The notes under the pieces: generated by a model
The model's input: only the letters and a program-made list of their open reading frames with translations
Database searches by the model: none
What the model was told of the DNA's origin: nothing
Made by a program: the position numbers and the translations under genes
From: Azolla caroliniana
Taxonomy: Eukaryota; Plantae; Polypodiophyta
Length of the DNA stretch: 64,000 bases
Direction: 5' to 3'
Assembly (NCBI GenBank): GCA_043228905.1
Contig: JBHGNT010000022.1
Location: forward strand, 8,680,001 to 8,744,000
In this document: positions 4,973 to 57,964 of the stretch, piece after piece
Numbering within the stretch: position 1 is the first letter of the stretch
Layout of the letters: each line of letters starts with the position of its first letter

Positions 4973-5030
4973 TAGTCTAATGGTAAGACCTCGACCCATG
5001 TAGCATAAGGTCATGGGTTCGAGTCTTGCC
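4973..5030 (+). other. tRNA-like Pol III A/B-box module, antisense within LTR C
   Basis: TAGTCTAATGGTAAGAC (A box, D-arm GTCT/AGAC) ... GGTTCGAGTCT (B box). No intact acceptor or anticodon arm. Confidence 0.55.
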
Positions 5031-5036
5031 ATGACA

Positions 5037-5680
5037 ATCGGCCATGTCGTTGACAAGATTCTCATCTTCCTCTCATCATGTCTCCGGCATACCCTTTGGA
5101 CTTCGGCCCAATCTTCAGTAAGACCATTCGTACCGTCATCGTCTTCGAGTTCGATCCCGATGTCCATCCTTTCTTTTCGATCGATCGATTTTACGAACAT
5201 TAGGACTTTATCCTCTCCCACCAATCGTTGTTCCCGCTTCGAAAGTTGAGCAAGACGATGCTCGAACTCTAGGAATGCTTGTGTTGCACTTCGGTGGGTC
5301 TTCTCCGATGCCACCCATTCGTCGAATTTTCGCCGATCTTGTCCCTTTGATCTCTTGTAATCATATGACTCTCGTAAAGCTTCTTCGAATGATCCCCATG
5401 TCGAGTTTTGTTGCCGTATCTTGTGGATTCTCTCTTGTAGCTCATCCGTGGCCACCCGATTGAAGGATGTCACTTGCAATCCTTCCGGTATCCCACATCG
5501 TATCATCTCCGCCTTGTAGTCACGTAGATAGCGTGACACATCGTTTCCGTTGAATTGTCCGTTTCGTTGTACGAGCCGCTTTACTGCCCCCGTGATCTCC
5601 GACATCACTCGTTGTTCTTGTAGCATCCGCTCGAACATCATCATCATTGTTATACTCATTGCCTCTTGTTGATTCTCCAT
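5037..5680 (-). pseudogene. gag: N-terminal Gag of element B, interrupted
   Basis: MENQQEAM...GQFNGNDVSRYLRDYKAEM...GLTEDWAEV; the frame reads into LTR C after TTWP. Confidence 0.85.
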
Positions 5681-6587
5681 CTCCTTGCCACCCGCCTTCA
5701 CGTCGGGTTCACCAACTGTGTCGTGCCTTTCGGCTCCGGATCGTTTGCGTGAGTCGGGTGGGAACCACCGGGGTTTTGGACTAGGAGGAGGAAGAATTTG
5801 AGGCTAATCTAGTTATGAATATGAATAGATTATAAGAAAGAGATATAGAAACTTGTGAATCCCACAAGTATAATTGTTTTAGTTTATCTAAATCGTAGTA
5901 ATAAATTGAAATAATTTAGAATAGATTAGAGTAGATTGAGAAAAGAGATCAAACCTTGTGAATCCCACAAGTATTACATTAATCAATATTTATGTAAGAA
6001 TATGAATTTAGATTGAAAGAGATAGATTATCTTAAACTTCGTGAATCCCACGAGTATATTTTATTGATTGTTGGTGTTTTAGGAAATATATCCAATTTCC
6101 CAAATATTTTTCACACACAATTACATTGTGCTCCCCATCCTTATGTAGTGATGGGAGAGATTAAGCATAGCTACATGCTTTCTTTTCTAATATGTTCATG
6201 CACACTAAATGTGCATGTGATGCTTTTTTAATCCTTGCTTTTATTTGCTAAATATAGTGCTCATGCACGCTACATGTGCATGAGTCACTTTTTAGTTGCT
6301 TGCGTTTTTCTATAAAATATTCACGCACTCTAAAAATGCATGGTTTACCTTTTAATAAAGGTAGGCGCAAATAAAGCACTTATAGTTATTAAATCTATTT
6401 GTAGAACACTAAAGATAAGGTAGCATAATGGTAAAGTTGAGGTTTGGCTACGTGGAGGTATAGGGTTCAAATCCTGCCCTATGCATGTGATAAATATTTT
6501 GATATTCTTATTTTATTTATTTATATGTAATTAAATCGTTTATATTATTTTTACTTTTTCACGTAGTGTACGAAATACACTACGACA
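5037..6587 (-). mobile_element. TGTCG-family Gypsy element B (relative of gag-only element F), truncated by insertion of C
   Basis: LTR 5719-6587; PBS TGGTGAACCCGACGTGAA at 5697-5714; gag from ATG 5680 closely similar to the 13988-16009 ORF; outer flank ACGT at 6588-6591. Confidence 0.88.
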
Positions 6588-8322: not shown

Positions 8323-11300
8323 ATTGCCAGGTCCGGCGTCGCGCATCCGGAAACCATGCCGAGTATCGGCAGGCAGTCCGTCTCGATTGTTACCTCCGTC
8401 CCGATCAGGTAGTCCCTGTCGGCCTTGACTGTTGAAACAATACCCCATAGTTCGCGTTTGACTTGGGCGTATCCTCGCTATCGCTCGCTCAATACCTTCA
8501 CCCCGAACCGGATCGGGAACCATGCGCCGTCCTCATCCTTCTGGTTGATCACCCACTCGATCCCGGTCGAGCTCGTGTCCACCGTTACGTAGATGGGGAC
8601 CCCCTTACCGGAAACCACTTTACGGAGAGCTGGCGCTACCGTAAGCGCCTCCTTTAGTCTTCGGACTGACTCTGTGTGCTCCGTCCTCCACTCAAAGCTA
8701 CGCCCCTTTTTCAATAGTCCGTAGAGGGGTTCCGCGACATGTGTGTAGTGCAGGATCCAGATGTGGTAGAACGCGCATGCTCCCAAGAATCTGCGGACCT
8801 CCGTGACCGACCCGCAATCGTTCCTCATCGCAGAGATGGCCTCTACCTTTGCCGGAGACGGTCTCCTACCGTAAGGCCCACACAGGTGTCCGACCACCAA
8901 GATCTCCGACTGCCCGAACGCCAATTTTTCTCCGGAGAAGGTGAGTCGTGCGTTTTCCAACCTCTGCAGCACCTTCTCGCAGTCGTTGATGTGGTTCACG
9001 ATGAACCTCTGTCATCCATCCCGCCCAACAGTCTCGTCCGTATTATCCACCGGACACCCCTTTATTGGGATGTCGTCCAAGAATGGCATGGTGATGTCCG
9101 GGATGTAGTCCCTCAGCACCTTGTTCATTGCGTTCACCATATGCGCCACCAAATTCGTCCCGCCTTGTGGTAGGGTACACATCTGTTACGGGCATGACCA
9201 TATAATATCCCGTGGTAAGAATTTACCGTAGTATTCTATACACGTGGATAAGTGTGAGGGTTAAATGAGAGTGTAAAGAAGGGGAGGATTACTTTTAATC
9301 CTCGGGATTGAGACAACCCATTAGGTCAAGTGTGAACTTGCCTGGGGGCCTTGGGTTTTGCTATAAATAAGAGGCCTAGCTACCCTCGTTTGATCATCTT
9401 TTGACTACATCGAGACTCTGCTCGTGTGGTGGGTCAACTCTTGTAGCGAGCGCGCCAGCACCAGGTACGACTCGACGCCACGGCGGTGGTATGGGACGCC
9501 GATCGAGGCTCGAGTCCGTCTCGATCCCTTCGCTCGGGGGTGGTCGGGTGGATCGGCACCCTTCTTTCTCTTTCTCCTTTCTATCTATCTTTTCATTATC
9601 CTTATCTTAAGCTTACGTTAGTACCAAGATCTATAATATTTGGTATCAGATTTTTGTACTAATGTTTCTTTGTTTTTCATTTGTCTTTTGATTGATGCTG
9701 ATCGATCGTTGTGCGGTTGGCCTTGATCCAGACAACGATCAACAAAGAACTTCGGTAACTCTTTCCATAATTTTTCTTTCTATTCTCTCTTCTCCCATCT
9801 AATCATGTGTTTAGTTTATATGTAATTTTTTTCATTAAGTCAATGATGTTGTAGTGGTCTTTAATTGATTATCTAAAACGTTTACATATGTGCACGAGGT
9901 CAATACCTCGTTTGACATATTAATAATATGTGATGAGTGTCGTATGCGTACGAGGTTAATACCTCAATTACGTATTACGTTCACGAACATATGTTACGTT
10001 TGCGTATGAGTTTAATACCTTGATTTGTTGTAAACGATATGCGTTTGGTCTCGTATGCGTAAGAGGTCAATACCTCCATTGCGTATTACGATGATCTCTT
10101 ATTTGTGGATGTTTCGTGTGCGTAGAGGTATATACCTCGATTACGTATCTCGATCACATCATTTGTGGCTATTTACTATAACGATATGTTTAATATAGGC
10201 ATATGTGGTCACATATATACGTATTTGATCGTATATATGTGATAAGTAAACATATGTGTATATTCGTTATTACGTGATTATATCGAAAGTTGTCATGGTC
10301 GGGAAAAGGATGTTGGTGGCCGTCCTCACATTTTTGTGAGAATGGCGTTGTCACCATCCCTTTTTCAACATTTTTTTATTGTTGATAACCCCGTTGACGA
10401 CCTCGATTTCGTTACGTAAAGAAACGCCAATAGCCATAATGATGTTGAGTACGTAGGGCTTGACCCACTTCAAGTGAGGTCGCTCCAATGACGCACGTAT
10501 CCAACATCCCTCCCTCGTTACATGGATACGATGCCACCATGAGCTCGTTCTTACGAGAGGCATTCGTAATGACGTGACCATGTGATGGCCCACGTGAGCC
10601 TACTACGAAACAAGGGCTCATTTGGCTTGACCATTAGGTTGCACTTTGGCGTATGCCATCGTAATTACGAGACTTGAGGTTAGGTAACGTACCAACATAG
10701 TTTTGGTAAATGAGGGCGAAATAAGGACCCTTGACATATATGTTCTTTTAAAAAAACATATATGATCAATTGCCTCGCATATCTCTTATACGCACCAAAC
10801 ATTAAGCATTCGAGAAGAGCAACTTACTTGGTTGGCTCAAGTGTTTAATGTATTTGTTCTCGAGGTCTCGAGTTCAAATATGACCAAGACCATACAACAT
10901 CCTTGATACATATGACTATAACACATGTTTAGACTTAAGGTCTAAGTGCACCTCGGGGTCCTCGTAATAGGACTTAAAGAGCCGAAACCACTTATGTGGG
11001 CACCGAAACATAGTTTATTGTTAACATTTTTTTCGTGTATAAACTATTCATGACGCGAACATACATGGTTGAGCCTCGGGGAGCCACCATGAAAAAATCG
11101 ATATAGAGATCAGGGAAAGACATTTATTTGTCAGCCCCATGGTTTTTAAAACACCTTTGTGTTACCATAGTAACCTGATCTTGAACCTCATCTCATACGT
11201 CTACAGGGGTATTGACGTGAGATAATGATATCGATTAATGCTCGCCCATGATATGTTTACATCACGACATGATGTTATGACTATATCTCTGACCTTATCC

Positions 11301-11326
11301 TATTTCTTTTCCAGAAATAATCTTTA

Positions 11327-13222: not shown

Positions 13223-16200
13223 TGTCGTAGTGTATTTTGTACACTACGTGAAAAACGTATATAGTATTAGATTCAATAAAAAATGAAGAAATAGAAGAAA
13301 ATAGCAAAATAAATGGAACATGCATAGGGCAAGATTCAAACCTTGCACCTCCATGTTAATAATGTAATGTCTTACCATTACACTAGCATTTCATTAGTGT
13401 TAAAGCATAGATGTCCCACATAGAAAGGTAAATTCACGCTAGGATAAACATTAGAAAAACGCATAACAAAAGAAAAAGCTACACATACACATCTAGCGTG
13501 CATGATAAAAAACGCACAAGTTAGAAAAAAGCATGATCACTTTAGATAAAGCATATAGTCTATCTATAGGAAAAGCATGGGGTCTATAGTTAGAGAAAAA
13601 GCATGGATTACTAAGACTTCCTCATCACTACATAAGGATGGGGAGCACAATGTAATTGTGTGTGAAATACTTGGAAACTGGATATGTTTCTAAAAAACAC
13701 CAATTAATAAACTATACTCGTGGGATTCACGAGGATTCTATATCATTCTCTTTCAACCCAAATTTATATTCTTATATTCATATTGATTAATCTAATACAA
13801 TATACTCGTGGGATTCACGAGTTTGCTATAACTCTTTCTTACAACATATTTATATTCTTATTAGCCTTAAAACTCTCCTCTTCCTAGTCCAAAACCCCAG
13901 TGGTTCCCACCCGACTCACGCAAACGATCCGGAGCCGAAAGGCACGACACAGTTGGTGAACCCGACGTGAAGGCGGGTGGCAAGGAGATGGAGAATCAAC
14001 AAGAGGCGATGAACATGATGATGATAATGTTTGAGCGGATGCAACAAGAACAACGTGCGATGTCGGAGATGAAGGCGGCAGTAGAGCGGCTTCTGCGACG
14101 AAACGGGGAATTCAACGGTAAGGGTGTGTCACGCTACCTACGTGAATATAAGGCGGAGATGATGCAATATCGGATACCGGAAGGATTGCAAGTGATATCC
14201 TTTAGTCGGGTGGCCTCGGACGAACTACAAGAGAGAATCCACAAGATACAACAACAAAACTCGACATGGGAGTCCTTTGAAGAAGCTTTACGGGAGGCAT
14301 ATGACTATGAGAGATGGACGGGACGAGATCGACGAGAATTCGACGAATGGGTGGCGTCGGAGAAGACTCACCGAAGTGCAACGCAAGCGTTCCTAGAGTT
14401 CGAGCATCGTTTTGCTCGACTCTCGGAGCGGGAACGAAGATTGGTGGGAGGAGATAAAGTCTTAATGTTCGTAAGATCGATCGATCGAAAAGAAAGGATG
14501 GACATCGGGATCGAACTCGAAGACGATGATGGTACGAATGGTCTTACCGAGGATTGGGCTAAAGTCGAAAGGGTATGCCGAAGACATGATGAAAGGAAGC
14601 TGAGAATCTCGTCAACAACGACATGGCCCATGAAGGATGGTCGATTGAGGAAAAACGATGAAGCCAATATGAAGGCCGAAATACAACATGATGGTACCAC
14701 GGGAGAAAGAGTGGAACAAGACACCCACTCGTCTTGTGAAAGAACGATGGCGAAGGATAAGGCCGATAATTCAAGTGTAGAAGGAAATTTCGGGATACAA
14801 GTGCCCGAGACATCGGGTCAAAAAGGGGTAAGCATAATAGATGTTTGCATAATTGATGCAGATAAAGAGTGTGAAGCGGATGTGATTAAGGAGGTAGCCA
14901 CAAAAGACGAAATCGAATCGGAGGTGGCTATGGACGAATCAATGGCGGATTGCCATATCGAGACTTCCCCACCACTGATTCCAGAGACTCCGGCGGTTGC
15001 GATCGAAAGGCAACGTGAGACCGAAGAGACGGAAGGTGGCGGAGAGAAAACGAATGTCGAAGCCGACGAATACGATGAAGAGATAGTCGAGAAGAATGCT
15101 AAGGGTGAAACTACGAAAGAAGGTAATACCGAGGATTCATGCCAACAATATCTAGAGACTTCGGCGGTTGTGTCCGAGAACCAACGTGAGACCGGAGAGA
15201 CGGGAGATGGCGGCGAGGAAGGTAAAGTCGGAAGTCGGTTCGGATGGAAAATGATTCATCCGAAATTCCAATCTAAAAGAAAGTGCGACAATGCGGAGGT
15301 CGGGTCTACGACGGGAGAAGCGCGTAATACAGAGCACGCTCTACGGCGAATAAAGAAACGCGTGTTATGGCGAATAAAGAAGCACGCGCTACGGCGAGAA
15401 AAGAAGCATGCATTACAACCACACGAGGACCGAACAACGAGCACATATCGGAGGACCTACGTGGCGAACAACGGAAAGAAGTGCCAAAAGTCGAACCGGA
15501 CAAGGCAGGTGAAAACGAAGAAAAGAAAGCAAATCCGGACGAAAAGAAAAGAAAAGAAACCGACCCGAAAGAGCACTGAATCGGTAAAAACCGATCAACC
15601 GAGTCCGGATCGACCGAATACAAATCGGAAAGGAAGCCGAACTAAACGAAAGACGATCCGACGAGACCGAATCGGAAGTAAGCTAATCCGACTAAACCGA
15701 AAATCCGAAAAGAAGTCGAGATTGATGAAGAAAAGAAAGAGGGCAAGAAAAGATACTACCGCGGATGACAAGGACCAAGCGGGCCATGCAAAAAGCGAAC
15801 GAAGACTATGGTGGATCGGATGTCGACAATGGTTCGGGTGGAAAGAATGGATGTGCTCCAAATGGAGAGACAAAGTCAACATAACAAGAGAAGTCGAGGG
15901 TACTACGAGCCGGCAACGAAACCAATCGGGTAGAGACCGGACGGAGGAGACTAACAAACACCAACAACTTCGGCACATACCGGAGGATGTGCGGGTTTGG
16001 AGGGGGTGAGTGTCGTAGTGTATTTTGTACACTACGTGAAAAACGTATATAGTATTAGATTCAATAAAAAATGAAGAAATAGAAGAAAATAGCAAAATAA
16101 ATGGAACATGCATAGGGCAAGATTCAAACCTTGCACCTCCATGTTAATAATGTAATGTCTTACCATTACACTAGCATTTCATTAGTGTTAAAGCATAGAT

Positions 16201-16737
16201 GTCCCACATAGAAAGGTAAATTCACGCTAGGATAAACATTAGAAAAACGCATAACAAAAGAAAAAGCTACACATACACATCTAGCGTGCATGATAAAAAA
16301 TGCACAAGTTAGAAAAAAGCATGATCACTTTAGATAAAGCATATAGTCTATCTATAGGAAAAGCATGGGGTCTATAGTTAGAGAAAAAGCATGGATTACT
16401 AAGACTTCCTCATCACTACATAAGGATGGGGAGCACAATGTAATTGTGTGTGAAATACTTGGAAACTGGATATGTTTCTAAAAAACACCAATTAATAAAC
16501 TATACTCGTGGGATTCACGAGGATTCTATATCATTCTCTTTCAACCCAAATTTATATTCTTATATTCATATTGATTAATCTAATACAATATACTCGTGGG
16601 ATTCACGAGTTTGCTATAACTCTTTCTTACAACATATTTATATTCTTATTAGCCTTAAAACTCTCCTCTTCCTAGTCCAAAACCCCAGTGGTTCCCACCC
16701 GACTCACGCAAACGATCCGGAGCCGAAAGGCACGACA
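13223..16737 (+). mobile_element. Non-autonomous gag-only LTR element F (3515 bp), TGTCG family
   Basis: 727-bp LTRs 13223-13949 and 16011-16737 (one difference seen); 4-bp TSD CCGT; 18-nt PBS TGGTGAACCCGACGTGAA 13954-13971; PPT GGAGGGGG; no PR, RT or INT. Confidence 0.93.
13988..16009 (+). CDS. Gag-derived protein with acidic middle and Lys/Arg-rich C-terminus
   Basis: First ~210 aa align by eye with Gag of element G; the rest is unrelated and has no CCHC knuckle; the ORF is open from PBS to PPT. Confidence 0.8.
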   Translation: MENQQEAMNMMMIMFERMQQEQRAMSEMKAAVERLLRRNGEFNGKGVSRYLREYKAEMMQYRIPEGLQVISFSRVASDELQERIHKIQQQNSTWESFEEALREAYDYERWTGRDRREFDEWVASEKTHRSATQAFLEFEHRFARLSERERRLVGGDKVLMFVRSIDRKERMDIGIELEDDDGTNGLTEDWAKVERVCRRHDERKLRISSTTTWPMKDGRLRKNDEANMKAEIQHDGTTGERVEQDTHSSCERTMAKDKADNSSVEGNFGIQVPETSGQKGVSIIDVCIIDADKECEADVIKEVATKDEIESEVAMDESMADCHIETSPPLIPETPAVAIERQRETEETEGGGEKTNVEADEYDEEIVEKNAKGETTKEGNTEDSCQQYLETSAVVSENQRETGETGDGGEEGKVGSRFGWKMIHPKFQSKRKCDNAEVGSTTGEARNTEHALRRIKKRVLWRIKKHALRREKKHALQPHEDRTTSTYRRTYVANNGKKCQKSNRTRQVKTKKRKQIRTKRKEKKPTRKSTESVKTDQPSPDRPNTNRKGSRTKRKTIRRDRIGSKLIRLNRKSEKKSRLMKKRKRARKDTTADDKDQAGHAKSERRLWWIGCRQWFGWKEWMCSKWRDKVNITREVEGTTSRQRNQSGRDRTEETNKHQQLRHIPEDVRVWRG

Positions 16738-16741
16738 CCGT

Positions 16742-19279
16742 CTCCAAGGAGCTCGGTATTTTACGAAACTTGATCTCCGTACTGGCTACCATCAAATACG
16801 AATAAGTGAGGACGATGTTCCTAAAACGGCATTTCGTACGCGCTATGGCCATTACGAGTTTTTGGTTATGCCTTTTGGTTTGACCAATGCTCCGGCTACT
16901 TTTCAACAAGAAATGAATGACATTTTCCGAGAACAACTTGGAAAATTTGTCGTTATTTTCTTGGATGATATTTTAGTTTATAGCCGTACATTACAAGAAC
17001 ATGTTAGACATGTCCGCTTTGTTTTACAAACATTGCGTGACAAACAGTTTTATGCGAAGATCTCAAAATGTGAGTTCTTCAAGAAATCAATTACTTATCT
17101 AGGACATCTCATAACCGAACGAGGAGTTGAAATTGATCCTTCTCGCATTGAGAAAATCAAGCTTTGGCCCACTCTTCGGAATATTCGAGAAGTTCGATCA
17201 TTCCTTGGTTTTGTGGGGTTTTTGCGAAAGTCTCTTCGTAATTACTCCCAATTGACGATGTCGTTTACTGATCTTTTAAAAGGTCAAACGTGTAAGTCTA
17301 CAAAACCTATTGTGTGGAATGCTACACTAGACCTTGCATTAAAGGAACTCAAGGACCTAGTTTGCAAGGCTCCTTCACTTCTTTTACCTGATCCTTCAAA
17401 ACCTTTTGAGGTTGAAACCGATGCAAGCGATTATGCTATAGGTGTTGTCTTGTATCAAGATGGTAAACCAATAGCATTCGAGAGTAAGAAACTTGATTCT
17501 GCTCAATGTCGGTATACCGTTCAAGAAAAGGAATTATTTGCAGTTATACATGCACTCGAAACATGGCGCCATTATCTTTATGGAAATCACTTTGTGGTAA
17601 CTACGGACCACGAGTCCTTGAAATATTTTTGTGACCAACAAGACCTGAAAGGTCGTAAGGCACGATGGGCTGATCTCATCCAGGACTTTGATTTTTCCAT
17701 ACGATATCGTAAAGGTTCCATGAACATTGTCGTTGATGCACTAAGTCGCATCCGTGAAGTTAACACGCTTAGCTTCACTGAAATATCATCAGATCTTTAT
17801 GATCACCTTCGAGGAAAGTATCCTGATGACAGTTATTTCGCAAAATACTGGGCTAGAGTTGAGTCTGGAACAGACACCACCACATCCTTGAAGGAATACT
17901 TCCACATTGCTAACGGTTTGCTCTACCGTAATGGGAAGGTTTGTGTTCCAGATTTACCCGAGGTCAAAAAGAGGATTCTTTTTGAATGCCATGATGCACC
18001 CTCAACAGGGCACCCTGGAATACATCGTACACTCGTTCTCATCTCCACTCAATTTTATTGGCCTAAGATGCGTCCTGACATACATAGCTATGTGACTAAA
18101 TGTCACCAGTGTCAGGTTAACAAAGCCGAGCGACTTAAAGCCGCAGGACTTTTACATCCCTTGGACATTCCCAATAATAAGTGGGAAAGTATATCCATGG
18201 ATTTTATTGTTAGCCTTCCTCGCACCCAAAAAGGTCATGATGCCATCTGGGTTGTCGTTGATCGACTAACTAAAATGGCCAGATTTATTGCTACTAAAAC
18301 CACGGTAACAGCTCCTGAATTGGCTTATCAATTTGTTGACGAATTGTTTTGTTTTTATGGGTTACCGATGGATATCGTGAGTGATCGAGATCCAAAGTTT
18401 ACTAGTGACTTCTGGACACAAGTCTTTAAGAAGTTAGAAACTACGTTGAGCATGAGCTCCACGGATCATCCTCAATCCGATGGACAGACAGAACGAGTAA
18501 ATCAAATTATTGAGGACATGCTTCGAGCATACGTTGGTGCAAAACCAACAAAATGGGAACGTTATCTCCCAATTTTGGAGTTTGCTTATAACAGCTCCAA
18601 GCATACGTCGACGGGATATAGTCCTTTTATGTTGATGTATGGTTTTCAGCCACGAGCCCCGATTGATGTTAATATACATCATGATGAGTTGCGAAGTACG
18701 CAAAAATTTCTTCGGGATATGCAAGATATGTTGCATATTGCACGAGATAATATAAAAACAGCTCAAGATAGAGCGCGTTTTTATGCCGATCATCATAGGC
18801 AACCTCGTGTATTCAACCCTGGACAGAAGGTATTTTTACGTGTACCTCACAATTCTAAGACATTGTCTACGGGTAAGTGCGCTAAGTTAGCCCCACGGTT
18901 TTGTGGACCTTTTACAGTCCTCAAACGCATTGGGTCATCAGCCTATCGTCTCGCTCTTCCCGATGGTGTCGGAATTCATCCAGTCTTTCATGTGAGTCGT
19001 CTAAAAGAACTTCTAGGTTCTGGCGACAATACAGTTACGACTGAAACTCTGGTTACTTCTGAAGAATTATCTTCTAAACCACATGTACCAGAAAGAATTC
19101 TCGATGTTAAAACAAAAAAATTACGTACTAAAGAAATCCGAGAATTCAAAATAAAATGGATGGATAAATCAATAAAAGATGCCACATGGGAACGCGAAAA
19201 TACTCTTAGAACTAACTTCCCTAACTTTCCATTGCAAGAGTGCAATGTTTTAAAGAGGGGGAGTATGTTACGGGCATGA
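16742..19279 (+). CDS. pol: RT-RNaseH-integrase-chromodomain of element E (3' part)
   Basis: [36 protein letters not shown] integrase, GPF motif, chromodomain PERILD...KIKW...DATWE. Confidence 0.93.
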
Positions 19280-22200
19280 CCATATAATATCCCGTGGTAA
19301 GAATTTACCGTAGTATTCAATACACGTGGATAAGTGTGAGGGTTAAATGAGAGTGTAAAGAAGGGGAGGATTACTTTTAATCCTCGGGATTGAGACAACC
19401 CATTAGGTCAAGTGTGAACTTGCCTGGGGGCCTTGGGTTTCGCTATAAATAAGAGGCCTAGCTACCCTCATTTGATCATCTTTTGACTACATCGAGACTC
19501 TGCTCGTGTGGTGGGTCAACTCTTGTAGCGAGCGCGCCAGCACCAGGTACGACTCGACGCCACGGCGGTGGTATGGGACGCCGATCGAGGCTCGAGTCCG
19601 TCTCGATCCCTTCGCTCAGGGGTGGTCGGGTGGATCGGCACCCTTCTTTCTCTTTCTCCTTTCTATCTATCTTTTCATTATCCTTATCTTAAGCTTACGT
19701 TAGTACCAAGATCTATAATAACATCCATACCAGACCAAGAGGGGTTCGCATCGTTGTGATATCCCTGCTCTCCACGGCTAGCTGGAACTGGTCGTACCCC
19801 GAGTATAAGTCACCGACCGAATAGATCGACCTTCCAGCAAAGGCCTTCGCGAACTCGTCTATGGTCGGTCTGATTCTTGCATTACAGATGATCACCCTGT
19901 TGACCGATTGCAGGTCCTGAATGAAGCGCAACGTGCCGTTCTTCTTCGGCACCGTAAACCACCGATTCGAATACGGGGCACTCGACGGTTCGAGGATGCC
20001 CATCCCCACCTTTTGCTTCAGAAGCTCCATCCACTTCGGGATGTGAGCTCTCGGCACCGGAATCTGTTTGAGATTCCACATTACATGCGGTACCGTGAAG
20101 ATCACCATTGGTTCGACAATCGTCGGGTCCACGCACCCGATCTCCTCCGGCGAGAACGCGAAGGCTTTCCCATGCTTTCCAAGCATTCTCCCAAACCTGT
20201 CCTCCTCCGCCGGCAGTAGAAAGCCACCCCCACCGACCTTGGTAGCGTTATGTCGGTGAACCGGTCCCCTATGCCATCCGGATTCCGTAAACTTGGGTCC
20301 GACGCGACCCCTTTTATCTGCTCCTCGCTGCCCTCCGACAAGGGTGTTGCGACTAGCCTCACCTTCCAGTCCACAGTCTTGTACTTTGTATCCACGCGGG
20401 CCATCCAATCCAACCCGATCCTTTCCCCGAAATCCGTGATGACTTCGTACATTCCCATCAAACTAACCGGAACGGTCTGGTCTTCTCTAAGGTCTTCACC
20501 GATCACCTTTCGTAACTCGCCCAAGGTGTCATCAAAAGAGACCGCCTCCACGGCGCCACTGATTTCTTCGTCGGGGGAGAGGACTCCGCATCCCCTGAGC
20601 CGCTCCTCCGCTCGCTTCCTCTCCCAGCCGCTGATGCTGGCTATAGTACAACCTCCGTTTTCGGAGAACCAAAACTTCCTACCTACTATACATGTGTGGG
20701 GTTCTTCCGGTACGTCCGGACTACCGCGGCCCCATGCCTTGATAGCCCTCTCTAAAAATCCCCTCGTCTGTCACCACCGAGGGTCTCGCGATTCCTCTCA
20801 TGGTTCGGACGTACGGTCATGAATTGGACGGAATGCCGACCGTCTTGGCTCTTGACACGCGCGTATGCCAAACCGTTGTCCAGCACCTTTGTCTCCTTGC
20901 GTGCTACCATAATGTATGGTTCGCCGAGAATCACCGGGTGCGAGGATGTTTCCTGCACGAAGAAATGTTGATCTATCTCGACGTCAACGACCTTTACCCA
21001 TATATTCGGGCATGCACCATGCAGCTCCTCCGTAGCACACGTCGTTGCGCGTATCTTCCACCCATGCTTGGTGTTGATCGGCCATTTACCCCCTCTTGTA
21101 GAAATCCATGGACATCAGGTTGATTTCGGATCCATGGTTTACCAAGGCCACCACCGGTTTCGGAACGTCGCCGATCCACACAGGGGTTTCTGAGTTGCCA
21201 TGGCCCAATGCGGCTTCACGTAGTGGTTTTCCGCCAACTCGTCTTCTAGGGTCGCGTCTTCTAAGTGTGTAGTTCGCACCTCCACCGGCTTCTTCGGTTC
21301 TGGCTCCGTCGAGAGCCTCTTCCGCTTCACCGAGTCTACGATGGAGTCGCGGAACTCCCTCTTGCCGATTCCCAGCACCTCCCGCAATGACAGCTCCACT
21401 TTACTGTCGAGGATCCGCTCTTCAAGGACCTTCCGTAGGTCCGTTGCTCTCTCGATTTCGGTGCTCAACCGAAACCCCGCCTGCTTCATTCCGTCCAGCG
21501 CGCCTGGGTTGCCAGCACCGGTCGGTTTCGGTCTGAACCGGGTCTCGTACCTCTGCGGGGGACCGACCCCCCCGGCCTTTCTTGCCCGTTTGTCTTCCAC
21601 CAGAACCTCGTAGTTCTGGCAAGCAGCTTCTACGAAGCTCGTTTTCTCTTCGACCGGATCGTCCCATCCGGTGACCTCTTGGACCCGTTGTTCCTCGCGG
21701 TCCGCCTCTTCCTTCTTCAGCCGAACTCCGGAGAGGCCTTCTAACACTAGCGGCCAGAATCTGGAGTCCTTCACCTTCCGGGTCTCATCACCCCCGACCC
21801 AAATTCCCGCTGACACTAAGTAGTTAACGGCTTCTACAATTCGTGCCGCAGCCTCTTCCATCAACCTCTTCATTTCGCCGCGCCCTGTATTTAGTTCTAG
21901 GGCTCTCCGGGTCTCGCTTGCGTGCACCCACCCGTTCCAGAGGTACACCACGTTGGTCCTGAGCGCGTCGGCGAAATCCGCGCAATCCTTCCGAATGTGA
22001 CTGATCGCCTCACACCACATGCACCGCTGCCCAGCTGGCGGCCTCCGGTCGCGAGGTTGTTCACCGTTGTCTCTCCGTGCCTATGCGATCTGCAGGTCGC
22101 GCACCATCTGTGTCAGCTCCTCCAGAGCCGCTCCTCCGGATGGGCCTCTGACCACGTCGTTCGATGCTGACCCCAACTCCAGCCAAATTTGGGTCTCTTC

Positions 22201-22997: not shown

Positions 22998-23028
<31 letters not shown>

Positions 23029-24198
23029 AGAGGAGAAGAGATTTGCAGATACACAAAAGGAAGAAGGAAAGAGAAAGAAATGGCAGACTTAATTACAGTA
23101 ACAGTCGATTACAATATCAAGAGATTACAAACTCTGACGATTACAACCGGCAAGGTAGCGATGGACCTGACACGGGGATCCTACTCACGCACACAGAAAG
23201 AACACATTGGACGCCAAAAAAAAAAATGTAGAAGGGAGAGCCTCTGCTGGCAGCGCACGGGCTACCCCCGAAGCAGAGGCGTCGAACTCCCAGCACCCAC
23301 AGAGAATGACGATCCGAGGAGGAGAGAGAGCTTGGCACTCGGTCCTGCAACCCTTCGTCCTCCTTAACGCGTTGTCGTAGTGTAGGTTGCACACTATGTG
23401 GAAATTATATTTTTGTCCCTCCGGATAGAGAATGGAGTGCTCGGTGAGAACCGGAAGAAAACGGCATACCGGCAAGGAGGAAAACGGCATACCGGCAAGG
23501 AAGAGCCGGATAAAGAGACATAAATGTAAAAAGAAAGGAAATACTCACTACTACGCAGGGCGTGATTCGAACTCTGCACCTCCACGTTGACAAACCCCAA
23601 CCTTACCATTACATTAACTTATCTTAAGTGTTTTAAATATAGATTTAATACGTATAAGACCTTTATTTATGCATACCTTTATTAAAAGGTAAATCGTGTA
23701 TTTTTTTTAATATATGAAAAAGAAAAACACGAGACACTAAAAATAACTCATGCACATCTAGCGTGCATGAGCCCTATACTTAGGAAATAAAAAAGCATCA
23801 CATGCACACTTAGTGGACATGAACACTTTTTGTAAAGAAAAAAAAAGCATGAAGCCATGCTTAGCTCTTCTTTCCTTATATAAGGAGGAGAGAAATATGT
23901 AAAGGGTTGTTGATTATTTGGATTAATAATTGATCAATACAAAAATTATTCGTGGGATTCACGATTTATACATCTACTTCTCTCTTAACACCCTAAGTAC
24001 CAATTAATATAGTATACTCGTGTGATTCACGAGTTTCTTATCTTTCTCTTTGCTATTTACTCATAATTAATCTCTATCTCACGAACTTCTTTCTCCTAGT
24101 CCAAGACCTTTGTGGTTCCCACCCGACTCACGCAACGATCCGGAGCCGAAAGGCACGACACAGTTGGTGAACCCGACATGAAGACGGGTGGCAAGGAG

Positions 24199-29200: not shown

Positions 29201-29347
29201 GGAAGCGAAGAAAGTGGATTACAACTCATAGTCGACATAAGGGGAGAATCGGAGGAAGCTTCGGATGAAGACGGATACGAAGAATCAAGAACTTCGGCAC
29301 ATACCGGAGGATGTGCGGGTTTGGAGGGGGCGAGTGTCGTAGTGTAG
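26235..29347 (+). pseudogene. pol: pol of element G (RT with in-frame TGA, RNaseH deleted, intact integrase)
   Basis: DLYSGYDQF, LPQGATNS, FLDD; TGA at 27504-27506; frameshifting deletion near 27872; integrase H-H-C-C, ADRGE, NGKIERGH, WFGPY, acidic tail and no chromodomain. Confidence 0.88.
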
Positions 29348-31150
29348 GTTGCACACTATGTGGAAATTATATTTTTGTCCCTCCGGATAGAGAATGGAGT
29401 GCTCGGTGAGAACCGGAAGAAAACGGCATACCGGCAAGGAGGAAAACGGCATACCGGCAAGGAAGAGCCGGATAAAGAGACATAAATGTAAAAAGAAAGG
29501 AAATACTCACTACTACGCAGGGCGTGATTCGAACTCTGCACCTCCACGTTGACAAACCCCAACCTTACCATTACATTAACTTATCTTAAGTGTTTTAAAT
29601 ATAGATTTAATACGTATAAGACCTTTATTTATGCATACCTTTATTAAAAGGTAAATCGTGTATTTTTTTTAATATATGAAAAAGAAAAACACGAGACACT
29701 AAAAATAACTCATGCACATCTAGCGTGCATGAGCCCTATACTTAGGAAATAAAAAAGCATCACATGCACACTTAGTGGACATGAACACTTTTTGTAAAGA
29801 AAAAAAAAGCATGAAGCCATGCTTAGCTCTTCTTTCCTTATATAAGGAGGAGAGAAATATGTAAAGGGTTGTTGATTATTTGGATTAATAATTGATCAAT
29901 ACAAAAATTATTCGTGGGATTCACGATTTATACATCTACTTCTCTCTTAACACCCTAAGTACCAATTAATATAGTATACTCGTGTGATTCACGAGTTTCT
30001 TATCTTTCTCTTTGCTATTTACTCATAATTAATCTCTATCTCACGAACTTCTTTCTCCTAGTCCAAGACCTTTGTGGTTCCCACCCGACTCACGCAACGA
30101 TCCGGAGCCGAAAGGCACGACAGCGTGATCCCTATTCTTCCTTCTCTCCCTCCTTAAATAGTTCGCAAAAAGGGGGTGCCCCTTTCTCCCTAGTCAAAAC
30201 CGCTTTATTCCCTGTCCTTTTCGACAGAGATACGCACAATCCTAACTTGTGTCTTTTTCTCCGATTCCGCCTATGGCCGGTTTCCTTCACGACAGCGCGG
30301 CTTACCTTCTCAGGAGAAAAATCAGCCTTCAGACAGTCGGGGATCCTGGTAGTCGGACACCTGTGCGCCCCTTTCGGCCGAAATCCGTCCCCGGCAAAGG
30401 TAGAAGCCATCTCCGTGATGAAGGATGATTGCGGGTCGGTCACCGAGGTGCGACGGATCCTTGGAGCATGTGCGTTCTACCACATCCAGATTCCGCACTA
30501 CGCGCATGTCGCGGAACCGCTCTACGGGTTGCTGAAGAAAGGGCGTAAATTCGAGTGGAGAGACGATCACATGGAGTCCGTCCAGAGACTGAAGGAGGCG
30601 CTCGCCGGGGCATCAGCTCTCTGGAAAGCTATTTACAGTAAGAAAGTCCCCATTTACGTGACGGTGGACACGAGCCCGACCGGGATCCGGTGGGTGATCA
30701 ATCAAGAAGACGAAGACGGCGTACGGTTCCCGATCCGGTTCGAGGCAAAGGTATTGAGCGAGCGGTAGCGAGGATACGCCCAATCAAGCGCAAACTATGA
30801 GGTATCGTTTCAGCAGTTAAGGCCGACAAGGACTATCTGATCGGGACGGAAGTGATCATCGAGACAGACTGCCTACCGATTCTGGGGATGGTTTCCGGAT
30901 GCGCGACTCCAGACCTGGCGATGCTCAGGTGGATCGCATACATCAAGTCCCTAAACCCGAAGATACGACACATCTCCGGAAACGATAACGCCATGGCCGA
31001 TATGCTTTCAAGGGCGAGGTTCAACGACGAGGACGGCATGGTTTCGGATAACGAAGAAGTCGGTGAGGACTTCTTCGGGTCAGCTAACATAACAACAAGA
31101 AAGGGGAGAACTCCGGCACTTAACGAATTCGACGAGAGCAAGTACAACGG

Positions 31151-31219
31151 TGTCGCGTTGGTATGCGCGTGCGTGGAGAACAAGGCGGGACCACTGGGGT
31201 CTTGGACTGAGGAATAGGT

Positions 31220-32338: not shown

Positions 32339-32510
32339 GAAGGCCGAGCGGTGCAGAGCAAAACGATCGCGGTCGTGTGCCGATTTCTAATCGAAGAAGT
32401 GGTATGCCGGTATGGGTGCGTAGGGAAGGTCGAGCTTTGCAGAGCAAAATGACCGCGGTCGTGTGCCGATTTCTGATCGAAGAAGTGGTATGCCGGTATG
32501 GGTGTGTAGG
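32339..32510 (+). repeat. 86-bp tandem duplication inside the integrase of H
   Basis: GAAGGYCGAGC...GGGTGYGTAGG repeated at 32339 and 32425 with several mismatches. Confidence 0.85.
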
Positions 32511-40899: not shown

Positions 40900-40908
40900 A
40901 CAAAACGG

Positions 40909-41524
40909 TGTCGCGAAGATTCGCGCATGCGTGTGCTACTCGAGCGACCATCGGGGTCTTGGACTGGGGAGGACGTTCGCGGAATTATCGAAGAGATGAA
41001 AATCAATGTAAGATTGGATGAAATTTGTTCACTTGAGAAGAAGAAAGATTGTACACTTGAGAAGTAGAAAAATATGAAGAAGATAAAGACGAATATAATT
41101 ATATTGATGTTAGTGGTGTTGGTGATATCACATATTGAGCCCCCCTTTACAAAAGCTCCATTAGGGTTTTTATAGCTCTCCTCATGCACAAAACCATGGG
41201 TTTAGAACCATGGTTTTGGGGACACGGTTTTTCTTATGACATGCACAATCCATGGGTTTAGAACCATGGTTTTGTGCACATGGTTTTCTATGGTTGTTTC
41301 GTCTATAATTCGTATATGAAAAGGAAATACATAAAATCTACACTATATGATAGTTGTCCTAGTGATAAGGCAAGTGCAAGGTTCAAACCTTGCTTGCACC
41401 CCTCTATATGAACTCAAGTGCCACTAGGCCTTAGGCTTATTTGCTAAGTGTATGTGCAATGTTGTACATCCTTGGTTTATTCGTCTCACTCGGTTTCACA
41501 CCGTAGCCGAAAATCGTCACGACA
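40909..41524 (-). repeat. Solo LTR, TGTCG family (divergent)
   Basis: TGTCG...CGACA ends; flanks ACGG (40905-40908) and ATGG (41525-41528); U5 motif CCTCCCCAGTCCAAGACC on minus resembles family LTRs; internal ~56-bp repeat at 41192-41290. Confidence 0.75.
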
Positions 41525-44500: not shown

Positions 44501-44637
44501 CCATCCTGATATCTCAGTCTCACAATCTTCCTGAAGACGGAGACTCTTTTTACAGCGTTCTTGTTATCGAACATGAACCCAATCTTCTTCCATATCACAT
44601 CAACGTTTGTCTCTTCATTAAAGTTGTTGTATAGGCT
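41525..44637 (-). mobile_element. Ty1/Copia internal fragment L (Tnt1/Tork-like), heavily degenerate
   Basis: gag (LALLLLGSL), WVVDFGASFHLT, LWHKRLCHM, INT end, RT (MDVKMAFLHGDLE, LLYVDEM); several deletions. Confidence 0.82.
42973..43445 (-). repeat. Truncated LTR related to solo LTR K
   Basis: Reverse complement shares CGTGGTTTTTCCC..TAGGGTTTTCCA and ACTCGGTTGTGGCCGA with 35660-35785; right boundary approximate. Confidence 0.7.
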
Positions 44638-52516: not shown

Positions 52517-52978
52517 TGAACTTCATCATCATCATCTATTAATCTAGAACACTTAAAGTATTCAATAATATTTTGTATTTTATTATTATCTACTTTTAAC
52601 ATAAAAGTAGCACCTGTTATGAATAGATACATTTTGGCCCTACAAGGATTCAAGCCCATGACATCTTGGTCTATATGTTAGACCTCTAACCATTATAATA
52701 GCATATATGATGTATAGTTATAATAAATGTATTATTAGTTATTACAAGATATTTAAAGTATTCTAGAATATTCTAGGACATTCTAGGATATTCCATGATT
52801 ATATTAAATATCATAAATATCTAAAATATTCTAGAACATTATAGAATACTCCATAAGGACCTATAAATAGGTGTATATTCATTCATCACAACTCATTCGA
52901 TTCCACACCGGTCTTTAGCCCTTAGCCTACTCTTTGTAACCTTGTTTCCTAATAATATAATCTCATTTCCATTTCTTG

Positions 52979-53025
<47 letters not shown>

Positions 53026-53132
53026 CACAAGTCTCGACAGTTTGAACCGAATATTCTTTTCTTCTTCTCCAATTTCTTCTTCTTCTTCTCTTAAACTTAT
53101 TTAAGCAAATCTAGCAAATCTCTCTCGTAACT

Positions 53133-56100
53133 ATGGAGTCCGTTAGCAAGCAAGAATATATGCATGTTCGCCCCGAACTCGAATGCTAACAACCAAATTC
53201 ATGGCCCTAGAGCAAGAAAATCAAAGATTGCTAGGTGACCTACAACAAGTGCTGAGAAGGTACAACAATTTGAAGAGTTATCTCAACGGGTGCATCAATA
53301 GGAGGCTACTTTATTGCAACGACAAGTGGTGGAAGTTCAAACTTCACCAAAAGAACCAAAGATTAGTCTACCAGCCAAGTTTGATGGTACCCAACTGATG
53401 TTGCTCACGTGGGACTAGTTGGTACCTTGTTAACGGGTACCGCATTAACATGGCTTGCACCACTCCTAGAGAAGCACTCACCATTATTAGAAGATTTTGA
53501 AGGGATAATGAGTTCCAAGCCAACTTTGGAGACACCGATAGTATGAGGACCGCAATAAACAAAATTCAGCGATTACGACAAGGAGATCGTCCTACTTCCG
53601 CTTATGCTGTAGATTTTTGCCTTCTAGCATGTGATATTCCATGGGACGAGGCGGCGTTAATGGACCAATTTCGTCAAGGTCTACGCAATGATGTGAAGGA
53701 TTTACTTCTTACCTTCCATGATGATCCATAATCTTTTACTGAAGCAGTAAGCCGAACCGTGCGATGTGACAATCGCTTATTTGAGCGGCGTTTTGAGCGC
53801 CAACAAATGTTACACTTCCGACCAATAGAAACATATGCTTCAATGATCGCAACTCCACCCCAAGTATGAAAGTCAAGTTTGGTGGAAGGCCCTACTCCAA
53901 TGGAAATCGAGACAACACAACGTCGAGGACCATTATCGGATGTTGAAAAGCAACGATGGGGAGTGAATCGTCTATGCCTCTATTGTGGTGGTCTAGGGCA
54001 TATTGTTGTGAATTGTCCACATAAACCACAACGACAAGTTAACCAAGTAAGTGCTCATGACAATCCCATCTCAATTTTTGCCCCGCCTTCTCGTAACCCA
54101 AGTAAGCCTTGTAGTCCCTGTCATAAAAATACATTTGATGTCTTGAGCCAATTAGATTATGTGTTAAACAAGTAAGTTCGGCCAAAATCAGAATCATTTG
54201 GTTGGACAACCCTAGGCATATAACGTCCATCCCTAGTTGTGGTTCCATTTCATCCGGTCAAGTTAGTCGAGTTTTCTTTGCACAAGTTGAGCTTAACACA
54301 TCTAGGTGCCATCGAATCCCAGCTTCTGCCCTCTTAGACTCTAGAGCCAACTCTTGTTTCATGGATCGTGAGTTTGCTGTAATGCATAATATTCATTTGC
54401 ATTAGCTCCCAAGCCCAGTGTCTGTTAGAGTCATTGATATAGTTGAAGAGTCTGAACCAATTCGTGTAGTCCTAGGCAATTTGGCTAGCGTCATCTCATT
54501 CAACATCATTAGTAGTCCAGAGCACTCCCTAGTTCTTGGTCTTCCATGGTTTGAGCTACATAACCCAACTATTGATTGGAGAAAAAGAACCATTGAAGAG
54601 GTCACAATACATCTGAGTCTCTTGAAACTCCAACAAAGGATACAACATTCCAAAAGATTTCGACAATCTCTATACATCAGCTACGTGATGAAGGACAGAA
54701 GGAAGACATGTTGGTGTTCGCAGTTTTAGCAACTCCCACATCGAGCTCACAAGAATTGGGGGTCCAACTACTGAAGAAATATTTAGAATTCTCTGATGTG
54801 TTTGATAAGGTGAAGGCCAATAGACTACCAGAGCATCGACCATATGATTGCCCGATTGATTTGCAGCCCGGAAAAGAGCCTCCATGGGGGCCAATTTATA
54901 ACCTTTCGCCCACAGAGCTAGAGGTTCCTCGGGAATATATCGATGAGAACTTGGTGAATGGGTTTATCCAGCATTCAAAATCTCCTACCAGCGCACCCAT
55001 ATTTTTGGTTAAGAAGAAAGATGGTTCGCTTCATCTGGTTGTGGATTATCGAGGATTAAATAAAGTAACTATTCGAAACCGATATGCTCTACCATTGATT
55101 TCGAGCCTTCTGGAACGCCTCAGTGGAGCTAAGTATTTCACAAAGTTAGATCTTCGAGGTGCTTACAACCTTGTTCGAATTCTTCCTGGGGATGAATGGA
55201 AGACTGCTTTCCGTACTCGCTATGGCCATTTTGAGTATATAGTGATGTCATTTGGTCTCACAAATGCACTAGCAGTTTTCCAACATATGGCGAATGATAT
55301 TTTTCGAGATTTCCTCGATATTTTCGTCATAGTTTACCTGGATGATATCTTGATCTACGCAAAAACTCAAGAGGATCATGATATACATGTTCGACAAGCT
55401 TTGCAACGGTTGCGTGATTATAGTCTCTATGCAAAATTGGAGAAGTGTAGTTTCGACTAGCGTTAAGTGGAATTTTTGGGGTACATAGTCTCTTCACATG
55501 GCATCTCTATGGATCCAACAAAGGTTCAAACTGTTTTGGATTGGCAAACACCACAGTCTGTGCGAGATGTACAATGTTTTTTGGGGTTCGCAAACTTTTA
55601 TCGCAAGTTCATCAAAGATTATTCAAAGATCGTATTGCCCCTCACTCAACTAACACAAAAGAATCAACCATTTGTGTGGAGTATAAATGCAAACTCTACA
55701 TTTGAAGGATTAAAGCAAGCATTTACATCCACACCAAATTTGATGCATGTTGATCCATTGAAGCGCTTTATACTCGAAGTGGATGCATCCGACTTCGCAC
55801 TAGGAAGCGTATTATCCCAGATTAGCAATGATGGCCAACTACACCCTGTGGTGTTTCATTCATGGAAATTCGAAGCTGCAGAAATCAACTATGAGATTCA
55901 CGACAAAGAGCTTCTTGCCATTGTGGATTCTTTTCAACAATGGCGTCATTTTTTGGAGGGTTCGTCTCAATAAATCATTGTCTATAATGATCACAAAAAT
56001 CTAACGTATTTCCAAAGTGCTCGAGTCTTGAGTCGTCGACAAGCTTGTTGGGCGAAGTTTTTAACTCGTTTTGATTTCGTAAATGTATATCGCCATGGGA

Positions 56101-57777
56101 CGCAACAAGGAAAAGCAGATGCTTTATCATGGCGTTCGTATATGGAACTTCAACCAGGAGAGGCCGCATTTGAAAGTTAGAAGAAAATCCTCTTGGGTCT
56201 TGACCGTCTACGGCTAATGGCATTTCATGCTATAGACACACCCGTGGATTCAAGTCTTCTGGACTCCATTTGGCAGCATACTGAGACTGATGAATTCACC
56301 CAAGACATTCTGAACCATATTATACCAGATCGTGCTTCTTGTTCACAATCTCAAAATCCTCGTCAAGACTACAACCAATTCAGTTAGCATGATGGTTTAC
56401 ATTTTTTACAAAACCTCTTATATGTGCCTGATGGTCCTCGTTGACTCCAAGTCTTGCAACAATGTCATGACACACCAATGACTGGACATTTCGGCATCCA
56501 CAAAACTTTGGTGTTAATTTCTCGAAGGTATTGGTGGCCACGACTCCGCCATTTTGTTACTGATTATGTTCGTAGTTGTGATACATGTTGTCGATCCAAA
56601 AAACCTTGACATCATCCATATGGCGTATTACAGCCAATGCCTATTCCTAAGAGTCCATGGAAATCTATTTCATTGGACTTCATTACGGATCTACCACCTT
56701 CCAAGGGTTTTGATTCTATTCTCACGGTAGTAGATCGTTTTACCAAGATGGCACATTTTCTTCCCTGCACAAAGGCCATTACGAGCCAAGAGATAGCCGA
56801 GTTACTCATGCGAGAGGTGTTTCGGCATCATGGTCTTCCCGATGATATTATCAGTGATCGGGGTCCCCCGTTCATCTCAAAATTTTGGCGGCACATGTTC
56901 AAACTCTTACATACTTCTTGCAAACTCTCTTCCGGCTACCATCCAGAAACTAACGGGCAGAGTGAGCGCACCAACCAAACACTCGAACAATATCTTCGTT
57001 GTTTTGTCAACTATCAACAAGATTATTGGGTTGATCTATTACATTTGGCGGAATTTTCTTACAACAACTCAGAACATTGTTCCACTGGATATTCCCCATT
57101 TTTCGCAAACATTGGGTACCATCCTCATTGGACTATGCTTGAACATCTCGAACTCTCGACAAACTCGGCTGCTGAAGATCGGTTCACCTGACTCCAAGAA
57201 GTTCAAGATATCCTTTTGCACCATTTATATGATGCTCAAAACACTCAAAAGAAGGTTGTCGACCATCATCGACGTGATTCATCGACTACAGTGGGAGATC
57301 GAATATGGCTTTTACAAGGTCGCATTAAAACAACCCAACCTTGCTACAAATTGGATTATCAACGTTTTGGCCCATATGTGATATCTGGTAAGATCAATGA
57401 TGTGGCATTTCACCTTGATCTCTCCCCCTCATATGCATCTCCACCCAGTCTTCCATGTTTCACTTTTGGAGCCCTACACAACTAGCTCTATTCTAGGTTA
57501 TCTTACATGTCCCCCACCTCCAATCGAAGTTTCGGATGGCTCCGAATATGAAGTTGTTGCCATTTTCGACTCCAAGATTGTTCGCAACAAACTGTATTAT
57601 TTGGTTGACTGGTTAGGTTATACACCTAATGATCGAACATTGGAACCTCTCGAGAATCTTGCTAATGCCTCCGAAATGGTTGCTGCGTTTCACAACAAAT
57701 ATCCGCATAAGCCAAGTCCGAAATCTTGTCTTCTGACTCATGGAACTCGTCGTCGAAAAGGGGGGATAATTTCATGA
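53133..57777 (+). pseudogene. gag-pol: gag and pol (PR-RT-RH-INT-chromodomain) of Q
   Basis: PTPMEI, CLYCGGLGH, LLDSRAN, YLDD, EVDASDFA, DFITDLP, chromodomain EYEVVAIFDS...YYLVDWLGY; many stops. Confidence 0.9.
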
Positions 57778-57964
57778 AGACATACATTTTGGCCTTACAA
57801 GGATTCGAGCCCACGACCTCTTGGTCTATATGTTAGACCTTTAATCATTATAATAACATATATGTTGTATAGTTATAATAAATATATTATTAGTTATTAC
57901 AAGATATTTAAAGTATTCTAGAACATTCTTGGATATTCCATGATTATATTAAATATCTAAAATA

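Follow-up and report, generated by a model that had tools for sequence, protein, structure and literature searches.

Antisense tRNA-promoter-like modules in the long terminal repeats of two Gypsy retrotransposon lineages of Azolla caroliniana, candidate DNA elements of the Pol III type

A 64,000-nucleotide stretch of the 523 Mb Azolla caroliniana genome (contig JBHGNT010000022.1, positions 8,680,001 to 8,744,000; hereafter the window) is a nest of retrotransposons that have long terminal repeats (LTRs), and LTRs of two Gypsy lineages in it carry a module of an A box and a B box arranged as in a tRNA gene and pointing against the element. These modules are real and are present in thousands of copies. 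With moderate confidence, we read the module as an antisense DNA element selected in lineages, a type-2 promoter that would recruit TFIIIC and RNA polymerase III (Pol III) beside the element's own Pol II promoter. One lineage comprises elements B, F and G and a solo LTR, the other comprises C and Q; their features fit the Phygy clade, a non-chromovirus Gypsy group of seed-free plants, and the self-primed Tcn1 chromovirus clade, respectively, both assignments being based on the features listed below and on trees built here rather than on REXdb profiles. The two lineages are ~6 changes per column apart on a tree of reverse transcriptase (RT) and RNaseH. An earlier note on this DNA had proposed antisense mimicry of tRNA genes (tDNA) in two unrelated Gypsy lineages, and for the two distant lineages seen here this holds at the level of the promoter boxes.

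In tRNA numbering, the module reads T8-R9...A14-R15-T16-G18-G19-T20, AGGT at 44-47 and G53-T-T-C-R-A-R-Y-C61. All nine A-box/B-box sites of the earlier note were located where it had placed them, every one antisense to its element. Three are on the + strand: module C at 4973-5025 (A box 4973-4984, AGGT 5008-5011, B box 5017-5025), module B at 6421-6473 (A box 6421-6432, B box 6465-6473, A57 form) and the module of the solo LTR at 41355-41389 (A box 41355-41366, B box 41381-41389). The remaining six are on the - strand, in both LTRs of their elements. Module F occupies 13333-13385 (5′ copy; A box 13385-13374, B box 13341-13333) and 16121-16173 (3′ copy; A box 16173-16162, B box 16129-16121), and module G 23564-23616 (5′ copy; A box 23616-23605, B box 23572-23564) and 29526-29578 (3′ copy; A box 29578-29567, B box 29534-29526). 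Module Q is found at 52647-52700 (5′ copy, Q1; A box 52700-52689, B box 52655-52647) and 57802-57855 (3′ copy, Q2; A box 57855-57844, B box 57810-57802). The F and Q copies of the window have weakened boxes: C56T in both copies of F, T54C and C56T in the degenerate B box of Q1, T54C and G19A in Q2.

A tRNA-like distance between the boxes, workable for a type-2 Pol III promoter, is seen in B, C, F and G (35 nt from G18 to G53) and in Q (36 nt) but not in the solo copy, where 18 nt between the boxes have been deleted relative to its family; among host tRNAs, 15 of 19 rows have a G18-G53 spacing of 34-36 nt. The D arm noticed in C indeed forms a perfect D stem. Every module lies on the 5′ side of a TATA-like box, 113-273 nt from A-box start to TATA; in C this putative promoter box is at 4852-4860 (- strand), 113 nt away. 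The location in U3 claimed earlier is thus probable, being read from the position 5′ of the TATA-like box. In Tcn1-type LTRs, 12-41 nt separate the end of the module from that of the LTR, and in the C family the LTR end (5036 in C) falls on tRNA position 72; in Phygy-type LTRs the distance from module to end ranges from ~150 to 390 nt.

The exact gapped A-box/B-box pattern matches 4,434 times genome-wide, compared with 5 matches for the reversed pattern. Patterns built on the B-box flank alone retrieve 2,734 Phygy-type and 2,775 C-type copies, with 0 in the controls. A matrix trained on host tRNAs and applied to 664 kb of contiguous DNA yielded 49 matches with a score of at least 20, all with a spacing of 34-36, and 5 in the reversed control. 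The modules stand far above chance as judged by these controls.

Conservation was assessed in three samples chosen without reference to the full box pair: LTRs with a U5 motif, matches to A box plus AGGT, and relatives found by pol homology. Of 50 loci examined with the U5 motif, 3 lacked an LTR start and 1 was truncated; of the 46 full LTRs, 44 score at least 15 in antisense with the host-tRNA-trained matrix and 1 in sense, and spacing is 35 in 41 of these 44 though subfamilies are only 64-89% identical. Matches found by A box and AGGT only, which come from overlapping sources so that some places are counted twice, have a B box with at most one mismatch in 97 of 100 cases (reversed control 2). 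A search by pol homology turned up Tcn1-type relatives in other samples; the six of these with 69-90% RT-RNaseH identity and a callable LTR all have the module (shuffle p=0.005). Compared pairwise, these six foreign LTRs, to which the following figures are confined, show identities of 0.88 (positions 14-20), 1.00 (44-47) and 0.77 (52-61), as against 0.33-0.39 in spacer and flank. The boxes are thus more conserved than neighboring LTR sequence. Only three islands are kept, the A box, AGGT at 44-47 and the B box, with spacer, stems and tertiary contacts not conserved; the variable spacer in family and subfamily comparisons confirms that boxes persist while the sequence between them diverges. The most rigid part is AGGT-N5-GTTCRA, which in Tcn1-type elements lies within ~60 nt of the LTR end. 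In 24 subfamily representatives, picked by the box matrix, box conservation is circular except at 44-47.

On the tree, one clade (support 100/99) has the module in 10 of 10 LTR-bearing members, and the neighboring clade has one member with and four without it. LTR starts in the foreign-locus screen were set by a loose polypurine tract (PPT) rule that leaves "no" calls in distant relatives uncertain, and 54 of 98 loci gave no LTR call. None of 19 distant relatives in viral contigs has the module where the LTR is callable. Contigs of five sequencing runs were also compared with LTRs F and C: in run X2, probably DNA, depth peaks on B-box bins and on other conserved islands, and such depth, which carries no strand, start or level, is a sign only of related LTRs elsewhere.

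Substitutions within the B box depend on the level at which they are counted. Among 16 clusters, A57 is the commonest form in 7 and T56 in 1. Hand counts of individual copies gave 22 T56 and 21 A57, an equal frequency, in the first 100 Phygy-type rows and 10 T56 and 5 A57 in the first 100 C-type rows, so that within copies both positions of the B-box CpG decay. The sparing of C56 at cluster level fits a B box defined as GTTCRA with an essential C, as given in PMC3395662. Selection most likely acts, we infer, on the lineages that keep transposing rather than on inserted copies. One Phygy-type family (L194:1240-1430; G000:C1 about 14643500-14643700) carries two diverged tandem modules ~117-136 nt apart, both with A and B boxes.

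In the mechanism that we propose, TFIIIC would bind the module, and TFIIIB would be placed between the module and the element's own Pol II promoter. Since the module faces outward, the AT-rich TFIIIB footprint would come to lie 113-273 nt upstream of the TATA box, and this orientation would presumably stop Pol III from reading into the Pol II promoter. A copy would gain a patch of open or bounded chromatin over U3 that aids its transcription, with any antisense transcript a by-product. The presence of an A box at fixed spacing makes a full Pol III complex more likely than a site with a B box only, of the extra TFIIIC (ETC) type. This benefit may come from a barrier, from a nucleosome-free region or from nuclear positioning. 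The insulator or barrier role suggested by the earlier note is thus one possible role, compatible with the data. A fission-yeast tDNA barrier is, however, orientation-independent and needs the full Pol III complex (PMC2040200), so that a barrier alone would leave the fixed antisense direction unexplained.

Several observations weigh against a selected DNA element of this kind. A C56T sub-lineage of the F family has transposed: 16 of 30 fetched loci, chosen by likeness to the window copy, carry the mutation, and both LTRs are mutant in three elements beyond that of the window; a four-member B cluster is T56 as well. Changes at the B-box CpG affect 12 of 30 copies, compared with 76 of 678 other LTR CpGs, indicating that most inserted copies are not protected there, and this decay argues against routine protection by the module. 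Between closely related Phygy-type subfamilies, conservation extends over positions 39-76, which is wider than the B box, and is matched by that of other islands in U3; at this short evolutionary distance the module thus counts as one among several U3 motifs under constraint. AGGT at 44-47 lies outside the textbook A and B boxes and may be read by another protein or RNA partner. Weak stem signals appear among the 24 representatives (shifted T hairpin p=0.03, D stem p=0.08, both uncorrected). Finally, Copia LTRs, the E-type chromovirus and one Phygy-type branch lack the module and yet persist in the same nests; in the tree used for this comparison the root is uncertain, and the label of locus L032 is unreliable, as its integrase is perhaps from a neighboring element.

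A broader version of the proposal is tentative and, in our view, rather doubtful: a portable Pol III chromatin module in two deep Gypsy branches, laterally passed or twice captured from the same kind of donor, that would keep the Pol II promoter open inside silenced nests. If it is true, the TFIIIC sites of this genome would include these LTRs as a major class, at over 4,400 intact box pairs, and AGGT at 44-47 would serve as a third promoter element. The modules bear on two general questions, namely by what means LTR retrotransposons remain active in heterochromatin and whether, in plants, TFIIIC-bound sites of the tDNA type form boundaries. The natural mutants (C56T, the spacer deletion and the tandem duplicate), together with module-free sister lineages, provide built-in controls for both.

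Among other explanations, an RNA-level site is unlikely but fares best. Here, U3 of the genomic RNA would pair with the D, variable and T loops of a host tRNA and aid packaging, priming or minus-strand transfer, which predicts strict antisense orientation and U3 position; the islands, 44-47 included, are then the tRNA loop regions, and G-U wobble would also be consistent with A57, but not T56, being tolerated. A tRNA-Lys3-like sequence in HIV-1 U3-R was reportedly described by Piekna-Przybylska in 2010. A further precedent is the bipartite primer-binding site (PBS) of Ty3, where tRNA-complementary U3 in genomic RNA amounts to antisense tRNA-like DNA (PMC5371799). Sequences in both Ty3 and HIV-1 match the element's own primer tRNA, whereas the Tcn1-type elements have no tRNA primer (self-priming: PMC6317226), with C and Q keeping the same islands, and the Phygy-type modules do not match their primer best. 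This primer, tRNA-Trp, does share AATGGTA, AGGT and spacing 35 with the modules, yet by the energy of its duplex with Phygy-type modules it ranks 12th and 14th of 19 host tRNA sequences, an incomplete set in which some genes are of organelle type. Position 59 is a purine in 24 of 24 modules and position 52 is G in 21 of 24, compared with T at both in tRNA-Trp. The expected complementarity of a U3 element to its own primer tRNA was therefore not found within this incomplete set.

A short antisense RNA was also put forward in the earlier note; such a Pol III RNA as the functional product, regulating the element or feeding small-RNA pathways, appears quite unlikely to us. In its favor, A box and B box are both retained, a T4 run follows within ~50 nt of most Phygy-type modules, and Pol III microRNA (miRNA) cassettes in foamy-virus U3 offer a precedent (PMC3993851). 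These cassettes are A/B-box units in U3 of an autonomous LTR element beside a Pol II promoter, as are the Azolla modules, but they encode hairpin primary miRNAs with defined terminators, whereas the modules have tRNA geometry and neither a conserved hairpin nor a conserved terminator. The T4-T5 runs reported after modules B, F and G exist, but their frequency is at the level of local composition (T4 in 12 of 15 Phygy-type representatives vs 11.0 expected, and in 3 of 9 Tcn1-type representatives vs 2.8), so that the oligo-T terminator of a type-2 Pol III gene is not found beyond chance. Tcn1-type modules have no fixed terminator and, given their closeness to the LTR end, the 5′ copy would read into arbitrary host DNA.

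The fold points the same way. A tRNA scan of the LTRs had been suggested, and ARAGORN and Rfam found no tRNA within the window. Across the 24 representatives, pairing in the acceptor, anticodon and standard T stems does not exceed that of partner-swap controls. Of the tertiary contacts of tRNA (C13-G22, 15-48 and G46), G46 is kept in 24 of 24, C13-G22 in 0 of 24 and an A-T or G-C pair at 15-48 in 5 of 24, whereas most class I host tRNAs in the same comparison show these contacts. Lacking a cloverleaf with paired stems and tertiary contacts, the modules are not tRNA genes. Because stems and contacts are not kept, T4 runs are at composition level and Tcn1-type modules are without a fixed terminator, a conserved RNA product is unlikely; length is not conserved either.

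Just as improbable as an antisense RNA is that a DNA-binding factor of another kind, either a Pol II activator or, near the U3 end, the integrase or Gag of the element, recognizes the islands, with tRNA origin incidental. The rigidity of AGGT-N5-GTTCRA and its nearness to the LTR end in Tcn1-type elements would suit such a factor, but in both lineages what is retained corresponds to positions of the A and B boxes, spaced as in a tRNA, and the distance to the LTR end is variable in Phygy-type LTRs. A neutral remnant of an old tRNA or SINE (short interspersed nuclear element) insertion carried along by successful LTR lineages, which would account for the transposed C56T sub-lineage, the free decay of the B-box CpG and the relatives that lack or lost the module, is very improbable given islands far more alike than neighboring positions, spacing fixed at 35-36 although flanks are rich in indels, and the absence of the target-site duplication (TSD), body and tail of a real SINE.

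This absence also bears on the possibility, named in the earlier note, that the modules are simply decaying SINE insertions: they are fixed parts of LTR families and not SINEs, fresh or decaying. The genome does contain a small tRNA-headed SINE family of ~350-450 nt (68 candidates), with TSDs of 10-20 nt in 10 of 11 head-bearing copies examined. The three islands recur in the head of this free SINE, and its box identity (0.82-0.83) is the highest among 16 host RNAs tested. Outside the boxes, no host tRNA (15 tRNA types) or SINE stands out as donor, identity being 0.25-0.37 compared with a null of ~0.24. Both module lineages and the free SINE nevertheless share unusual details, namely A14-A15-T16-G18-G19-T20, AGGT at 44-47 and often T62. 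The "convergent" acquisition proposed earlier is for this reason left without an advantage, as these details fit one donor or lateral exchange as well as convergence, and they suggest that one kind of donor or lateral exchange may lie behind the modules of both lineages. We infer an origin from a tRNA or a SINE head.

SINE copies (L037:1200-1580, equivalent to G000:C1:1649679-1650059; L345-L359) contain tandem repeats internally, and around their head a terminal stem is retained. In the host genome, tRNA genes further form tandem arrays (Trp; Lys with Asn-anticodon variants; Ile) at G000:C8:17.80-17.82 Mb, C16:4.99-5.11 Mb, C5:17.99 Mb and C2:20.11 Mb. A tRNA-Gly(GCC) copy similar to the organelle-type gene found elsewhere, ~147 kb to the right of the window (L075:6900-6971), is probably an insertion of organelle DNA.

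Pol III-type modules in LTRs are already known; here they stand antisense in coding Gypsy elements. The closest counterpart is Helenus/TRIMp3 (Kojima 2024, PMC10886601), with tRNA-derived sequence in the LTRs that is conserved around boxes A and B and is mostly not a functional tRNA. For Helenus, which has one plant family (Selaginella), an origin from a SINE head has been proposed, but its members are non-coding TRIMs (miniature retrotransposons with terminal repeats) of 311-1263 bp, in which the module is proposed to drive their own transcription (PMC10886601). The Azolla modules lie within coding elements of 5-7 kb with gag-pol and their gag-only derivatives, beside the TATA box and pointing away from the element. 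Of three marks of Helenus membership, one applies, since both LTRs do hold tRNA-derived A and B boxes, and two do not: the elements are not short non-coding TRIMs (G has 6.75 kb with gag, RT and integrase, family member L193 a pol of 1203 aa, F a frame of 712 aa), and the module is not placed to transcribe the element (44 of the 46 LTRs antisense, 1 sense). PMC10886601 speaks of "not a few" LTRs with tRNA-like parts, in an analysis limited to TRIMs under 1 kb. The Cassandra TRIM likewise has a long-conserved Pol III-type internal promoter in the LTRs of a plant retroelement, which differs in being of 5S type, in sense, producing the genomic RNA and non-autonomous (PMC10886601). With the Azolla modules, the range of LTRs that carry Pol III modules would thus widen beyond non-coding TRIMs and take in coding elements, where the orientation is reversed.

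As for a role as DNA acting via TFIIIC or Pol III, this has been proposed for A/B or B boxes in tDNA and ETC chromatin barriers (PMC2040200, PMC3395662) and for the boxes of mouse B2 SINE boundaries (PMC8136502). There, occupancy and function have been measured, at host loci or at SINEs that stand apart, whereas here the unit is a built-in part of the LTR and its role is predicted from sequence. In the text of PMC6317226 consulted here, which treats Phygy and Tcn1, a tRNA-like U3 module is not mentioned; nor was this module described in the literature searched (titles and beginnings of abstracts, outside subscription journals, Repbase and the Kojima supplements, which may list such LTRs). As the elements are coding and large and their modules antisense, they are not Helenus; nor, by the features given above, are the modules tRNA genes, SINE insertions or, as judged on the incomplete host tRNA set, primer-pairing elements. 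The idea that modules act as landing pads was also rejected: among 120 module copies in 10 clusters, a sample biased to intact LTRs, there are 0 breaks within 100 nt upstream and 2 farther out, at 122 and 139 nt.

The assignment of the host elements rests on clade features described for Phygy and Tcn1, including Tcn1 self-priming, by Neumann 2019 (PMC6317226). Elements of the B, F, G and solo-LTR lineage have similar termini, a PBS matching the 3′ end of host tRNA-Trp and 4-bp NCGN target duplications; a search for a chromodomain returned no match, and the relatives of their integrase named in the database are from Riccia and Ceratopteris. They thus combine the non-chromovirus Gypsy type, seed-free-plant relatives and NCGN target preference of Phygy. 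For the C and Q lineage, the chromodomain was seen in family member L193, which has an intact pol; the nearest named relatives are fungal and fish, on the Tf1/Sushi side, and a tRNA PBS is absent, the PBS instead being complementary to an LTR stretch ~30 nt past the TATA box, as in self-priming.

The 5′ LTR of C lies at 4570-5036 (- strand), with its self-priming PBS at 4560-4569 (- strand); its partner LTR is just left of the window, the pair being 99.8% identical with a 5-bp TSD. Q, an older copy with a self-priming PBS, has its LTRs, ~90% identical, at 52615-53039 (5′) and 57770-58190 (3′), both on the + strand. On the Phygy side, the truncated element B has its 5′ LTR at 5719-6587 (- strand), and the solo LTR of a third family occupies 40909-41524 (- strand). 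F (13223-16737, + strand) is a young, non-autonomous 3.5-kb element with gag only, in one open frame without pol, with LTRs at 13223-13949 (5′) and 16011-16737 (3′), a tRNA-Trp PBS and the 4-bp TSD CCGT; it has many near-identical copies and tandem arrays, and the window copy is inserted within chromovirus E. G has identical LTRs at 23373-24160 (5′) and 29335-30122 (3′), both on the + strand, and the TSD GCGT.

Further features were noticed in these LTRs and elements. Phygy-type LTRs contain further islands of strong conservation (window 13690-13860, with counterparts in B and G): past the TATA box a repeated near-palindromic motif, and between TATA box and module a palindrome rich in CATG. 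F and G share a conserved stretch with hairpin potential immediately 5′ of the PPT (15962-16010, 29286-29334). In one Phygy-type LTR, a MITE-like insertion (miniature inverted-repeat transposable element) with long terminal inverted repeats lies just past the module (L036:1590-1870). A 380-bp palindrome (L055:1180-1565) consists of two inverted C-type LTR 5′ ends with modules outward and looks like a miniature inverted derivative. The module-free LTRs of chromovirus E (9184-9638, 19266-19720) start with TG and end with TA instead of CA; its PBS is presumably of tRNA-Met type. Apart from the retrotransposons, an open frame with a GCK domain (window 61527-62659; PF07802, E 4.6e-30) overlaps a 340-380-bp tandem duplication that begins with a GA microsatellite.

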